Assembly: GCA_934130165.1 (NCBI GenBank)
Contig: CAKOXO010000002.1
Location: 192,412-256,411, forward strand
DNA length: 64,000 bases
Reading direction: 5' to 3'
DNA from: an uncultured Bacilli bacterium
GTDB taxonomy: Bacteria; Bacillota_I; Bacilli_A; RF39; UBA660
Below the pieces are notes generated by a model, which was not told the DNA's origin, did not search any database, and worked only from the letters and a program-made list of their open reading frames with translations. Numbering within the stretch: the first letter of the stretch is position 1; each line of letters opens with the position of its first letter. This document shows, one piece after another, positions 27,296-34,745 of this stretch. A program made the translations under genes and the position numbers.

Positions 27296-28474
27296 TTAAC
27301 TTCTTTTTATTAATCGTATCATTGAATATTTTTCAATTTTTTTATCAGTATCCAAATATATATAATATATATTATCAGGATGCCTTGCTACAGAAATACT
27401 ATTTCCTTCATCATCAAGTAATTTTGAAATTGAAAATGAAATAACCTCACCATCAGGTGTAAATAATTCTACTTCGTCACCTATTTTAAAATAGTTTCTT
27501 TCATATATTTTAACAAACTTATTATTATAGTCTATTACTTGTCCCAAATAATCTTGATTAGATGCTTCACATCTGCCAGTATAATACTGATCAGTATAAT
27601 CAGCTTCTTTTTCTAGGTAATGAGTAGATGTTTCTCTGTTTGCTACCCTAGATAAAATTTCATTTTGCTTTTTCAAAAATTCATCTGTTAGACAGTTATT
27701 ATAGTAAGCATCAATTATTTTTCTATAAGTTCCAATAACAGTAGCAAGATAATAAATTGACCTCATTCTTCCTTCTACCTTTAGACTTCTAACCCCAATT
27801 TCTATCATTTTCTTAATACAGTTAGAGGCGTTTAAATCTTTAGTTGCCATAGTAAAGTCTTTATCGTTCGTTAAAAAACTAAATCTACATACTTGAGCAC
27901 AACCTCCACGATTAGCATCTCTATTTGTTACATAATTAGATAAAGCACAACGTCCGGAAAAGCAGGTGCACATAGCTCCATGAATAAATACTTCTATATC
28001 TATTTTTGTTTTTTCAATTATTTCTTTAATCTCATCTAGTGATAATTCACGAGCAAGTACTACTCTATCAACGCCCTCTTTTTTGAAAAACTCAATTGCT
28101 TCATAATTAGACGTAGAGTTTTGGGTAGATAGATGTACCTCTACATTGGAATAGTTTTCTTTAATATGAGATATTATAAAAGGATCACTAACGATAAAGG
28201 CATCTATTCCAGCATCAACAACATCTTTAATATATTCTTCTACACCTTCCATATCTTCATTATGAAATACTATATTTAGTGTTAAATAAACTTTTTTATC
28301 TAAATTATGAGCAAAAGTACAAGCTTCTTTTATATCAGAAATGCTAAAGTTAGTAGCATTAGCTCTAAGACTATACTTTTGTCCACCAATATATACTGCA
28401 TCAGCACCATATAATAAATTAATTTTTAATCTTTCTAAATCTCCAGCTGGAGCTAATAATTCTACTTTTTTCAT
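27296..28474 (-). CDS. Peptidase U32 family protein, YrrO/TrhP2-like (tRNA U34 hydroxylation-associated)
   Basis: 392 aa. N-terminus LLAPAGDLERLKINLLYGADAVYIGG and EVFIHGAMCTCFSGRC are U32 hallmarks. Syntenic position relative to the trmR/mltG block, as yrrO in B. subtilis. Confidence 0.75.
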   Translation of the reverse strand: MKKVELLAPAGDLERLKINLLYGADAVYIGGQKYSLRANATNFSISDIKEACTFAHNLDKKVYLTLNIVFHNEDMEGVEEYIKDVVDAGIDAFIVSDPFIISHIKENYSNVEVHLSTQNSTSNYEAIEFFKKEGVDRVVLARELSLDEIKEIIEKTKIDIEVFIHGAMCTCFSGRCALSNYVTNRDANRGGCAQVCRFSFLTNDKDFTMATKDLNASNCIKKMIEIGVRSLKVEGRMRSIYYLATVIGTYRKIIDAYYNNCLTDEFLKKQNEILSRVANRETSTHYLEKEADYTDQYYTGRCEASNQDYLGQVIDYNNKFVKIYERNYFKIGDEVELFTPDGEVISFSISKLLDDEGNSISVARHPDNIYYIYLDTDKKIEKYSMIRLIKRS

Positions 28475-29359
28475 TTACTTCACCTTATAAATTGTTTTCC
28501 TATACAAAAAGTTAGTATTTCTTCCTAATAATTCTGCTTGTTTATTTAACCACTTTTTAAAATCAATATTATCATAATTATTGATATAATACATGATATT
28601 AGAAATAGATTCCATAAATATATCATGATCTATTAAATCTTCTTTTAATAAAATATATTTAAAATTATTCTTTATTAATTCTTCCAAAATAAATGATCCA
28701 TTCACAAGCTTTTTCATTATGAAACTAACTCCATTGTTATTTTCTCTAAGATAATATTCTTGTTTTGTTTTTGGTTCTATAATATCAACACCATCTTTTA
28801 TATTCTTTTTAGAATCAATATAATAGTTAGTAACTAATTTTCTTTTGGAAAAAGCAACAGTAGGATACCCTATTAATTCAACTATAGGTGTTATAGATGA
28901 TTCATTTCCTATTTCAATAATTTCATCTTTAGTTATCTCTTTAGAAAGCAGTGCATATTTAACTCCTCTACTATAATAGTAATCACAAGTTCTATAATTA
29001 GTAACCATATGAGTTTGATTCCAAACTAAATCTGTTTTTAGGTTCAATTTTTGTTTTAAGTTAAGTATTGCTAAATCATAAAAAAATATTCCCCTCAGGT
29101 TCATAGAATCTAATTCTAATAAAGTACTTTCTAAAAGTTTTAGTTCACTGTTTTGAATATTTTTATTTATTGATACGAATATGTTAATATTTGGATACTT
29201 TTCTTTTACTTTTTTAATTTCTTCTATAGTATAATAATTTGTGTATTCCACAGAAAAATCCTTAATTGGTAATAGAAAATTAGTGATTTTTTGTTTTATA
29301 TACGAGCTTAAATCATTAAGTATTGGCTTTACAATTATATCCATAAAAACACCTCGCAA
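28475..29359 (-). CDS. YrrN/TrhP1-like short U32-related protein (degenerate motifs)
   Basis: 294 aa. Immediately upstream of, and abutting, the U32 gene, as the yrrN-yrrO pair. Call is by position and size only. Confidence 0.4.
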   Translation of the reverse strand: MRGVFMDIIVKPILNDLSSYIKQKITNFLLPIKDFSVEYTNYYTIEEIKKVKEKYPNINIFVSINKNIQNSELKLLESTLLELDSMNLRGIFFYDLAILNLKQKLNLKTDLVWNQTHMVTNYRTCDYYYSRGVKYALLSKEITKDEIIEIGNESSITPIVELIGYPTVAFSKRKLVTNYYIDSKKNIKDGVDIIEPKTKQEYYLRENNNGVSFIMKKLVNGSFILEELIKNNFKYILLKEDLIDHDIFMESISNIMYYINNYDNIDFKKWLNKQAELLGRNTNFLYRKTIYKVK

Positions 29360-29397
29360 GTATTATACCACAAAAAAAAGAAAGTAAGTACTCCTCT

Positions 29398-30285
29398 TTA
29401 TACAAATCGCCTTACTCCTAAAAATTTATGTTTTACTTTTTTCGGTGATCTATCATTGGTAATGCCCCATTTTTCACCTTTGGATTCTATCAATTTACCA
29501 TTTCCATCATATATTCCTACATGCCCACTGTATACCACTACGTCTCCAGCTTGAGCATTTTTTAAACCACCTTTAACTTTTTTACCTTGATTTGCCCAAT
29601 CATCTGATACAATTCTATTTCCATTATATAATTTTAAATCCTTTAGTATGGAATATACAAACCCTGAACAATCACAACCACTTGTTAGAGAAGTTCCTCC
29701 GCTTACATAGGGATTACCAACAAAATTTAAGGCATAATCAACTATTTTTTGTCCATTGCTAGGACTAGTTACACTAGTTGTTGTCCCTGCTGTAGAATTA
29801 TTACTATTACTATTATTTTCTGATTCTTCTTTATTTTTTGTTAACTTTTCCAAATCAGAATCGCTTATTTTATATTTAGAAATATCTATTACTTTTTTTC
29901 TTTTATCTTTTTTACTTATAACATCATATTTTACATTAGAATTCATTGTTTTAGCTATACCTTCAGCCGATTCCCAACATGCCGATAATTCAAAGCTATC
30001 TGGGATTATACTTAAAACCACATTAACAATAAGTGGAATAAAGAATACTACTAATGCTGCAATAAATTTATTTAATAGTGCTTTGGGTGATTTTTTATCA
30101 TCTGGTGATGCCATCATCTTTATCATTTGTATTGTTGCCATTACTAGTAATAAGATTGGTATTACTATTTGAATTATTGTTAGTGCATTTTTCATTATAT
30201 ATAAATACATTGCTATTCCATAATCACTACAACAACTACTTACATCTGTACTACATGTTGTTTCTAATATTTGAATATATTTCAT
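29398..30285 (-). CDS. NlpC/P60-family peptidoglycan hydrolase with N-terminal Cys-rich two-TM domain, tandem copy 1
   Basis: 295 aa. C-terminal catalytic Cys in GCDCSGFVY and His in SGHVGIYDG (NlpC/P60 triad). N-terminal TTCSTDVSSCCSDYG followed by two TM helices. S/T/N linker. Confidence 0.7.
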   Translation of the reverse strand: MKYIQILETTCSTDVSSCCSDYGIAMYLYIMKNALTIIQIVIPILLLVMATIQMIKMMASPDDKKSPKALLNKFIAALVVFFIPLIVNVVLSIIPDSFELSACWESAEGIAKTMNSNVKYDVISKKDKRKKVIDISKYKISDSDLEKLTKNKEESENNSNSNNSTAGTTTSVTSPSNGQKIVDYALNFVGNPYVSGGTSLTSGCDCSGFVYSILKDLKLYNGNRIVSDDWANQGKKVKGGLKNAQAGDVVVYSGHVGIYDGNGKLIESKGEKWGITNDRSPKKVKHKFLGVRRFV

Positions 30286-30303
30286 ATCTAACTACACCTC
30301 CAA

Positions 30304-33758: not shown

Positions 33759-33787
33759 CTACTATCTCCTCCATAAAAAATAAAGAG

Positions 33788-34075
33788 CTATTGCCCATTA
33801 TTTTCTTGTTTTTTCTTAATTTCTTCTTGTAATGTTTCTAAAATTGTTTCTATAACTTTCCACTCTTTTTCTGTTTTTATAGCCTCAAACTTTGCACTTG
33901 GATTTTCAGGATCATAAATTGATGCATATACTTGGATATTTCCTGATTCATCCTTACTTTGATCAGTATATACTATATAGTTTTTATTAGTTTCATCACT
34001 TTCAAATGTAAATAATACATCATATACTACTTCATTTCCATCTTGATCAATCATCGTAAATGTATTTTTTTTCAT
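33788..34075 (-). CDS. DUF1292/YrzB-family small protein
   Basis: 95 aa acidic protein. Position between ruvX and mltG, as yrzB in B. subtilis. Confidence 0.55.
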   Translation of the reverse strand: MKKNTFTMIDQDGNEVVYDVLFTFESDETNKNYIVYTDQSKDESGNIQVYASIYDPENPSAKFEAIKTEKEWKVIETILETLQEEIKKKQENNGQ

Positions 34076-34077
34076 AA

Positions 34078-34494
34078 TTAATTTCCACTCCTATCTAAAA
34101 ACGATTGTAATATTATAGTGGCTGCTAAAGCATCTATAACTTTTTTTCTTTTCTTTCTACTTGTATTATTAGCAATTAATACATCTTCTGCTTGCTTAGT
34201 TGTTAATCTTTCATCTTGTAAATATATTGGAATATTTAATTTTTTTTCTAATTTTTCCTTAAATTCTATACTCAACATTCCTTTAGGCCCAATTGTATTA
34301 TTCATATTTTTAGGGAATCCTAAAACAATTGATTCAATATTTTCTATTTCTACAATCTTACACACTTCATCTATTAACTTATCATATTCTTCATTATGTC
34401 TAATAATTTTATATGAAGTAGCAATCATACCACTTTTGTCTGATGTAGCAATTCCAAGTGTTCTTGAACCCAAATCTAATCCTAAATATTTCAT
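34078..34494 (-). CDS. ruvX: Putative pre-16S rRNA nuclease / Holliday junction resolvase-like YqgF (RuvX)
   Basis: 138 aa. N-terminus YLGLDLGSRTLGIATSD is the RNase H-like YqgF signature. Confidence 0.8.
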   Translation of the reverse strand: MKYLGLDLGSRTLGIATSDKSGMIATSYKIIRHNEEYDKLIDEVCKIVEIENIESIVLGFPKNMNNTIGPKGMLSIEFKEKLEKKLNIPIYLQDERLTTKQAEDVLIANNTSRKKRKKVIDALAATIILQSFLDRSGN

Positions 34495-34745
34495 TTTTTA
34501 CTTCCTTGAAAACTTTCTAATAAAACTTCTAATATCTTTGTTCTATCAATTGACTGGATTTTTCTTCTAGCATCCTTATAGTTAGAGATATACCCAGGAT
34601 CACCACTAATAAGATATCCAACTAATTGGTTGTTTGGATTATAGCCTCTTTCTTTTAATATTTCATAAACTTCACTTAAAACCTTTTTAGTTTCTAATAC
34701 TTCTGTATTAATAACTTCAAATAATGTTGTTTTATCAGTACTCAT
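34491..34745 (-). CDS. ireB: IreB/YrzL-family (UPF0297/DUF965) regulatory protein
   Basis: 84 aa. The GYNPNNQLVGYLISGDPGYIS motif is characteristic of DUF965. Upstream of ruvX, as yrzL-yrrK. Confidence 0.7.
   Translation of the reverse strand: MSTDKTTLFEVINTEVLETKKVLSEVYEILKERGYNPNNQLVGYLISGDPGYISNYKDARRKIQSIDRTKILEVLLESFQGSKK

Follow-up and report, generated by a model that had tools for sequence, protein, structure and literature searches.

A conserved chromosomal block of predicted membrane-anchored NlpC/P60 hydrolases and an RsiV-fold protein in the trmR-trhP gene cluster of uncultured Bacilli

The 64,000-nucleotide stretch of DNA analyzed here (henceforth the window) comes from contig CAKOXO010000002.1 of the genome assembly GCA_934130165.1 of an uncultured Bacilli bacterium, and carries on its minus strand a run of ten genes in the order ireB-ruvX-DUF1292-mltG-trmR, three extra genes, trhP2-trhP1. 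These three extra genes, the subject of this work, form a block of 2,723 nucleotides between the trmR stop and the trhP2 start, close to the length of about 2.8 kb given in a first-pass annotation of this DNA. That annotation had placed between the methyltransferase gene and the pair of U32-family genes an anchored protein of 262 residues and two tandem NlpC/P60 genes; all three are present, the former with one transmembrane helix, and they are referred to below as p262, nlpA288 and nlpB295:

31210-31998, minus strand: p262, a predicted N-in single-pass membrane protein with an RsiV-fold (DUF4163/DUF3298-like) ectodomain, the proposed cognate partner of the hydrolases
30304-31170, minus strand: nlpA288 (288 residues), NlpC/P60 protein (PF00877, 49.6 bits against a cutoff of 23; PF18895, 19.6 bits against 26.6)
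29398-30285, minus strand: nlpB295 (295 residues), tandem paralog of the same architecture (PF00877, 48.8 bits; PF18895, 23.1 bits)

The nlpA288 protein comprises a two-helix anchor (residues 1-112), a disordered Ser/Thr/Lys-rich linker of about 50 residues (approximately 117-166) and a C-terminal NlpC/P60 domain (168-288). In its AlphaFold2 model the two anchor helices span residues 22-59 and 66-93 and are joined by a lysine-rich loop, while the C-terminal domain has a predicted local distance difference test (pLDDT) score of about 90. Two transmembrane helices and no cleavable signal peptide are predicted for this protein, and the two-helix N-terminal membrane domain, which is found in both NlpC/P60 proteins, was absent from the first-pass annotation. 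Under the positive-inside rule the loop of the anchor would be cytoplasmic and its cysteines, together with the enzyme domain, would be outside, from which we infer that the hydrolase domain lies at the outer face of the membrane. Across 45 relatives the anchor motif C11...C18-C19-x-D21-Y22-G23 is invariant and the dipeptide C103-W104, positioned right after helix 2, is nearly so. The catalytic residues of the NlpC/P60 domain are similarly preserved in these relatives (C199 near-invariant, H248 invariant) and both are found in both window copies; the third position of the triad is Glu in the window as against His in the family consensus, and Glu also occurs in RipA. The nearest solved relatives of the domain are SagA-type, LytE and RipC-type endopeptidases (8i2e, 8idc), and the window hydrolases look active and are predicted to be peptidoglycan endopeptidases.

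By profile similarity the anchor appears to be a modular domain related to VirB2-like pilins. The orthologous N-terminal domains of four related loci (L-numbers denote related loci throughout: L017, L023, L026 and L002) pass the cutoff of PF18895 (T4SS_pilin) with 29.1-33.7 bits, and scores above the gathering threshold were obtained for orthologs fused to NlpC/P60, CHAP and Amidase_3 domains as well as for stand-alone copies. Besides the NlpC/P60 fusions, the following forms were recovered:

Anchor with Amidase_3: L017, L112
Anchor with CHAP: L020, L023, L026, L113
Anchor with VanY: L115
Anchor with a C39-like domain: L081
Anchor alone: L002, L022, L032, L087

A word-index search with the 121-residue anchor alone gave 10 candidates. 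The tree of the anchor domain is poorly resolved on whether the window hydrolase arose by a C-terminal domain swap. No genes of a type IV secretion system (T4SS), such as those for VirB4 or the coupling protein, were recognized in the window or beside the module in the Pfam-annotated related loci. In more distant loci, pilin-like anchor domains are encoded in tandem by sets of three to five diverged genes that have no p262 neighbors (L090, 528-7555; L099, 5734-9644; L104; L106, 1013-3228; L111, 5896-8251). Similar arrays of VirB2 genes have been described in Patescibacteria (bioRxiv 10.1101/2025.01.22.634366), and the flanking proteins examined in L099 and L102 belong to no Pfam families.

The AlphaFold model of p262 (pLDDT 80.5; predicted template modeling score 0.73) consists of a 19-residue N-terminal tail, a membrane helix at residues 20-44 and a mixed alpha/beta ectodomain, and comparison of this ectodomain with RsiV and the DUF4163-DUF3298 proteins established that it has their fold. 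Its identity to RsiV (PDB 5jen) is 19%, and a profile of the family built from 62 sequences has 3cyg as its sole PDB match (E 0.0035); the structural matches of p262 are those given as RsiV-fold relatives in PMC5014341. RsiV, the anti-sigma-V factor of B. subtilis and its receptor for lysozyme, sits in the active-site pocket of lysozyme and inhibits the enzyme at a 1:1 ratio. A word-index search with p262 found 8 relatives, while an exhaustive profile search extended the family to 561 clusters (one representative each, 50% identity), of which 186 reach E <= 1e-10; these relatives are mostly 220-260 residues long, and none has a Pfam domain. We considered p262 as an anti-sigma factor orthologous to RsiV and rejected this, as it has no cytoplasmic anti-sigma domain. 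Whereas RsiV has such a domain, the 19-residue cytoplasmic tail of p262 is devoid of a sigma-binding domain, and its neighbors are trmR and the hydrolase genes, with no sigV-like gene beside it; further, the ligand of RsiV is host lysozyme, whereas the ligand proposed for p262 would be the cell's own co-encoded endopeptidase.

Two further features of this family may be mentioned. One relative (P0173, L114 334-1350) has a Cro/C1-type helix-turn-helix (HTH) domain N-terminal to the RsiV-fold ectodomain and is followed by a prepilin-type gene; its domain arrangement resembles that of a one-component regulator that spans the membrane and uses the same fold as its sensor. The p262 protein also has two cysteines, C205 and C209 (31384-31398), the first of which is kept in at least 90% of the 62 relatives within the motif ECDYxC. 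Conserved cysteines are accordingly found on the predicted extracytoplasmic side of both p262 and the anchor (30862-31140 in the latter). They could reflect disulfide bonds or a metal site common to both proteins, which would be an unusual trait in the surface proteins of an anaerobe.

All open reading frames (ORFs) of the trhP1-centered loci were searched with local hidden Markov models of the anchor domain and of p262; in these loci both gene types occur solely at the junction between trmR and trhP2 and always together. Counting distinct genes from all sources, all 49 p262-family genes lie within 1.3 kb of an anchor-domain gene and 49 of 55 anchor-domain genes have a p262 neighbor, a count that is partly biased by the many loci found via the anchor motif. 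As an unbiased check three distant p262 relatives were picked by the p262 profile alone. They yielded four pairs, in all four of which the p262 gene comes directly after an anchor-domain gene, the anchor being fused to an Amidase_3, CHAP, VanY or unassigned domain. The contexts of these distant pairs are:

trmR, anchor-Amidase_3, p262
anchor-Amidase_3, p262, adh, anchor-CHAP, p262
rnpA-yidC-jag, anchor-VanY, p262
pgk-tpi, anchor with an unassigned domain, p262, spo0A

A pair in yet another context lies between pyk and gmk/murG. The tree of p262 clusters by the type of the neighboring hydrolase and by the side or position at which it lies. For example, the CHAP-adjacent p262 proteins of L023 and L113 are 47% identical to each other, compared to 39-40% with NlpC-adjacent ones, while their anchors are related the opposite way. 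This hints that the p262 ectodomain may be matched to the catalytic domain. The relationship between anchor identity and the sharing of one p262 is a mixed pattern, which is equally explained by duplication age.

To study the distribution of the block, the large U32 protein was used to scan a single genome for each species, which gave 42 loci from metagenome-assembled genomes of uncultured gut and rumen Bacilli. These genomes are variously labelled as Bacilli, Tenericutes, Mollicutes or Erysipelotrichaceae, and Clostridium sp. CAG:710 is the closest record that bears a name. The window proteins were mapped on these loci and read against a species tree that is a neighbor-joining tree of the U32 protein, a single gene, without support values. 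In 19 of the 24 crown-clade species genomes that show both flanks, homologs of p262 and of the anchored hydrolase are found between trmR and trhP2. The non-carriers are L013, L016 and L021, with empty junctions, L006, with other envelope genes, and L019, at the base of the clade. In the outgroups (L033, L034, the Clostridia L037 and L040, and L019 of CAG:710) trmR is directly beside trhP2 with gaps of -3 to 343 nucleotides, implying that the block was gained at some point, whereas the nesting of L013, L016 and L021 among carriers suggests that their empty junctions are due to secondary loss. Hydrolase relatives with as little as 36-37% identity hold the same position between trmR and trhP2, most of 58 metagenome loci found via the anchor motif carry the block at the same junction, and the sister species L050 has an identical p262-nlp-nlp arrangement. 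On these comparisons the block was probably gained once, long ago, and was then kept, duplicated, reordered and sometimes lost, the number of losses being approximate.

The first-pass annotation had viewed the block as an insertion. It was right in that the extra genes are absent from the outgroups and from Bacillus; however, the gain is not recent, and the presence of the same genes at the same site in most relatives is the outcome which that annotation itself had taken to indicate ancestral rather than inserted content. The flanking repeats that it proposed to look for did not materialize: the block has neither direct nor inverted flanking repeats, and all that was found were its internal tandem duplication and chance AT-rich matches. 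The G+C fraction of the block (0.22-0.33) is similar to that of its flanks, and the only tRNA gene in the window is about 18 kb away. There is no recombinase among the neighboring genes scanned; viral, phage and plasmid collections contain no relatives of the block; and the defense-system models of PADLOC gave no match.

Several relatives also have other genes at the same junction, which encode large surface proteins whose N-terminus bears a prepilin-type methylation motif (PF07963; L006, 6011-8173; L017, 5500-7428 and 7473-9383; L046, 9728-10402; L027, 162-2975, upstream of trhP2). One of these surface proteins has Listeria-Bacteroides repeats, and a SpaA-domain protein is also found. The junction of trmR and trhP2 is a long-lived hot spot for envelope genes. 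In L024, L025, L027 and L031 the synteny breaks exactly upstream of trhP2 (above about 9150 in each); the genes upstream of the break have no counterpart among the window ORFs, and trmR is not within 9 kb, implying that the junction is also a rearrangement breakpoint.

The two hydrolases of the window are 78% identical overall, and their similarity is concentrated in the N-terminal segments, the coding sequences of which form a direct repeat that is 95% identical:

30835-31170, minus strand: homogenized anchor-coding 5' segment of nlpA288
29950-30285, minus strand: homogenized anchor-coding 5' segment of nlpB295

Synonymous divergence (dS) between the two genes is 0.16 in the first 112 codons as against 0.75-0.82 in the linker and catalytic domain. 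The two anchors of the sister species L050 match each other at 100% identity and those of the window at 87%. The catalytic domains, by comparison, are 83% and 90% identical between orthologs of the window and L050 and 71-76% identical between paralogs, with that of nlpB295 being orthologous to P0017 of the sister species. As the catalytic domains follow orthology, the duplication predates the split of these species, while the anchor-coding 5' parts, judged from these identities, evolve in concert by gene conversion. The ratio of nonsynonymous to synonymous divergence (dN/dS) in the catalytic domain is 0.25, which indicates that both hydrolase copies are likely to be functional.

The first-pass annotation also placed the block at an operon-internal position. 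This is doubtful, as both junctions carry a hairpin with a T-run and then an extended -10 box. The spacers are 84 nucleotides after trmR and 38 nucleotides before trhP2, and the signals at the two junctions are:

32037-32064, minus strand: AT-rich hairpin leading into a T-run past the trmR stop, terminator-like (by folding); kept in the window, L050, L001 and L002
32028-32036, minus strand: extended -10-like box TGnTATACT upstream of p262, promoter-like; kept in all four aligned species
29374-29399, minus strand: terminator-like hairpin and T-run that overlap the end of nlpB295 at its stop codon; present in L050, in part in L001, and missing from L002, in which the two genes directly adjoin
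29362-29370, minus strand: extended -10-like box TGGTATAAT upstream of trhP2, promoter-like; identical in L050 and similar in L001

The stem of the trmR-side hairpin shows an A-U to G-C change among the four aligned species. A consensus promoter scan is uninformative at 26% G+C (72 promoter-like sites against 74 expected), and the consensus terminator scan, which requires three G-C pairs, missed the AT-rich hairpins including the trmR-side one; the -10-like box upstream of p262, with its TG, is among the sites that the consensus scan listed. Judging by the hairpins, T-runs and -10 boxes at the two junctions, the block may be transcribed separately, in which case the ancestral operon would now consist of three units.

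The explanation that we favor, and consider fairly probable, is that the block is an old chromosomal cell-wall cassette of tethered autolysins and a cognate RsiV-fold partner, fixed in this lineage of uncultured gut Bacilli of low G+C content, rather than a recent or mobile element. The two NlpC/P60 endopeptidases would be tethered to the outside of the membrane by the VirB2-like hairpin and the flexible linker of about 50 residues, and p262 would bind its co-encoded hydrolase at the cell surface and restrain or direct its activity. The pair would then function as a tethered autolysin and its cognate inhibitor or regulator in wall growth and turnover. With its own promoter and terminator the block would be expressed apart from the two remaining units of the ancestral operon, and the hydrolase genes are an old tandem duplicate whose catalytic domains have diverged while gene conversion keeps their anchor parts near-identical. 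The cassette adjoins mltG and ireB, both of which are linked to wall homeostasis.

Several observations weigh against this explanation or parts of it. The anchors of the window themselves score below the PF18895 gathering threshold, and p262 has no Pfam match to DUF4163 or DUF3298 at E <= 0.01. Fold likeness to RsiV does not prove the function of p262, and Mpt64/Rv1980c shares the fold yet does not bind lysozyme (PMC5014341). In addition to the partial bias of the pairing count, six of the 55 anchor-domain genes are without a p262 neighbor, among them the anchors that stand alone at this junction in L087 and L080. The evidence for matching of p262 to the catalytic domain is mixed, in that p262 and the anchor of the window both lean slightly to the Amidase_3-type pair of L017. 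Finally, the hairpins at the junctions are weak and very AT-rich, their fold z-scores are unremarkable, and the alignment comprises four species.

More tentatively, and as a possibility that we would not rate above the alternatives to it, the p262 family with its 561 clusters could be an unrecognized class of membrane-anchored RsiV-fold inhibitors or regulators, each matched to a co-encoded peptidoglycan hydrolase tethered by a VirB2-like pilin hairpin that was co-opted for this purpose. Firmicutes that have a wall and a reduced genome would then possess a general two-gene system of autolysin control or self-protection, spanning five or more catalytic classes, and the interaction of RsiV with lysozyme would be extended from the sensing of host enzymes to the control of self-hydrolases. 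The common ancestor of RFN20, RF39 and ML615J-28 is predicted to have lost most of the lyt/cwl endopeptidases (PMC10868615); if the lineage of the window falls within RF39 or its neighbors, this loss would leave room for a replacement autolysin.

The conserved N-terminus with exchangeable C-termini (NlpC/P60, CHAP, Amidase_3, VanY and C39-like) and a variable small gene adjacent is reminiscent of polymorphic toxin-immunity pairs, which constitute the main rival to the autolysin cassette, albeit one that we regard as unlikely. Here the pilin-like N-terminus would serve in trafficking or presentation, the swappable hydrolases would be toxins directed against neighbors, and p262 would be the immunity protein. 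Such a system would account for the divergence of the block proteins (27-45% identity between species whose flanking proteins are 60-87% identical), for the variation in copy number and gene order at a hot-spot site, and for the tracking of the hydrolase type by the p262 subtype; the blocking of the active site of a wall hydrolase by RsiV is also in line with it. However, proteins with two predicted transmembrane helices and no cleavable signal should stay in the membrane of the producer, and no assignable gene of a T4SS, a type VII secretion system or another export system was found within about 10 kb by homology mapping of the related loci and Pfam searches on a subset of them. The module is usually single-copy and within housekeeping operons next to mltG, and the catalytic domains are under purifying selection (the dN/dS of 0.25 noted above). 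Spare or orphan immunity genes and toxin-tip cassettes were likewise not seen in the related loci, though L020, L023 and L026 do have a second p262 without an adjacent hydrolase.

Slightly less likely still is that p262 is a stand-alone sensor of, or decoy for, host lysozyme, which lies beside unrelated autolysins by chance. The RsiV fold of p262, the origin of these organisms from gut samples, where lysozyme is abundant, and the N-terminal HTH domain of P0173, which suggests signaling in some members of the family, would all be consistent with such a role. Against it, the 19-residue cytoplasmic tail of p262 has neither an anti-sigma nor a DNA-binding domain, and the proposal does not explain why the two genes are strictly adjacent in four or more chromosomal contexts or why p262 subtypes group according to the type of hydrolase.

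Lastly, a recent mobile-island insertion or a conjugative remnant, with the pilin-like domain and the wall hydrolase as VirB2-like and VirB1-like leftovers, would fit the absence of the block in the outgroups and B. subtilis, the anchored wall hydrolases encoded by monoderm conjugation systems (PrgK, TraG, CwlT) and weak matches to conjugation proteins (PF18895 and the pLS20_p028 and Mbov_0396/0395 families), but is very improbable, and as a recent mobile insertion rejected, given the occurrence of the block at one site in 19 of 24 related species and in relatives down to 36% identity, the lack of flanking repeats, of an integrase, of a compositional anomaly and of relatives in plasmid, phage and viral collections, the lack of recombinase, relaxase, VirB4 and coupling-protein domains among the genes beside the block in the Pfam-annotated loci, and NCBIfam conjugation matches that are all far under their cutoffs. 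In L048 a serine recombinase is encoded about 5 kb downstream of the block, beyond greA. In the distant past the anchor domain may have arisen from a conjugation pilin.

Restraint of a bacterium's own wall-cutting enzymes is known in a few models, such as FtsEX-CwlO/PcsB/RipC, IseA-LytE and NlpI-MepS; the first two comprise regulated autolysins of the NlpC/P60 or CHAP type in Firmicutes and Actinobacteria. The proposed cassette shares with the FtsEX and IseA-LytE systems the logic of a growth-associated endopeptidase under a dedicated protein partner, and LytE and RipC-type enzymes are among the closest solved relatives of its NlpC/P60 domain. In contrast to these systems the cassette has no FtsEX and lacks targeting domains of the coiled-coil, LysM or SH3 type; a two-helix hairpin of its own is instead predicted to tether the hydrolase, and the fold of p262 differs from that of IseA. 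With the VirB2-like pilins of PF18895 the anchor shares the two-helix hairpin with a short charged loop and, in the more distant loci, the tandem arrays; unlike VirB2-like pilins and VirB1-like hydrolases, however, the domain in the window is fused to hydrolases and found in a housekeeping operon with no secretion genes nearby. Each part belongs to a known superfamily (NlpC/P60, VirB2-like hairpin, RsiV fold), and regulated autolysins are also known, but we found no literature account of these parts occurring together, or of their pairing being conserved over five catalytic classes. As an operon insertion the block is ordinary; as a conserved module of hydrolase and partner it is moderately interesting and testable. 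If the autolysin reading holds, it would provide a candidate growth autolysin system for an uncultured lineage and would suggest a wider role of the lysozyme-inhibiting RsiV fold as a hydrolase-binding module. For annotation, it supplies a working name for two unannotated families.

The genes that enclose the block reproduce the Bacillus-like order that the first-pass annotation had proposed (ireB, ruvX, DUF1292, mltG, a methyltransferase and two U32 genes), as confirmed by Pfam and NCBIfam matches and by the coordinates:

34491-34745, minus strand: ireB (yrzL-like), first gene of the cluster (PF06135, 97.6 bits; NF003997, 100.1 against a cutoff of 91)
34078-34494, minus strand: ruvX (yrrK-like; PF03652, 137.8 bits; TIGR00250, 124.6)
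33788-34075, minus strand: DUF1292 protein (yrzB-like; PF06949, 38.6 bits against a cutoff of 24)
32676-33758, minus strand: mltG/YceG (yrrL-like) endolytic transglycosylase (PF02618, 227.6 bits; TIGR00247, 219.5 against 103.4)
32083-32688, minus strand: trmR-like (yrrM-like) family-3 O-methyltransferase (PF01596, 74.2 bits)
28475-29359, minus strand: trhP2-like (yrrN-like) small U32 protein, without U32_C (PF01136, 55.1 bits)
27296-28474, minus strand: trhP1-like (yrrO-like) large U32 protein (PF01136, 253.7 bits; PF16325 (U32_C), 77.2 bits)

These are the same seven families, in the same order and orientation, as yrzL-yrrK-yrzB-yrrL-yrrM-yrrN-yrrO of B. subtilis, which likewise has greA downstream. 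The trmR-like protein has B. subtilis YrrM/TrmR (5zw3) as its top PDB match (E 8.7e-47 over residues 9-201), and no NCBIfam equivalog model scores above its cutoff for it; the trhP1-like protein reaches 323 bits with NF011996, under the cutoff of 534 of this equivalog model for E. coli TrhP. In B. subtilis yrrM (trmR), yrrN (trhP2) and yrrO (trhP1) form a single operon that is required for mo5U34, and YrrN has the U32 motif alone whereas YrrO has U32 and a C-terminal motif (PMC6599085), a description that the U32 pair of the window, one without and one with the C-terminal domain, fits. By contrast, trmR and trhP2 of the window are parted by 2.7 kb with three cell-envelope genes, so that trmR, trhP2 and trhP1 are not contiguous, and terminator- and promoter-like signals are present at both junctions; a role of these genes in mo5U34 formation is predicted from their relationships.

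Two of the start codons called in this cluster are probably too far upstream. The true start of trhP2 is probably the ATG at 29344 and not the TTG at 29359, as a GAGGTG ribosome-binding site precedes the ATG. The TTG start of the trmR ORF (32680-32688) overlaps the end of mltG, with an in-frame ATG two codons on.

Upstream of the cluster are genes for a rhomboid protease, TspO and a hybrid histidine kinase, and downstream of it a 132-residue ORF, an HD phosphohydrolase gene, greA, tig and lon; the neighbors scanned on both sides are all housekeeping genes. The 132-residue ORF (26864-27262, minus strand) separates trhP1 from the HD phosphohydrolase gene. It matches nothing in Pfam or PADLOC and has a homolog in one of the 42 related loci (L014, 36% identity), which makes it a second small lineage-specific addition to the cluster. 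A third U32-family gene, encoding a 717-residue protein with a DUF3656 domain, lies elsewhere in the window (14312-16465, minus strand); over its N-terminal half this protein is 35% identical to the trhP1 product, and its architecture of U32 with DUF3656 is presumably that of the rRNA hydroxylase RlhA.

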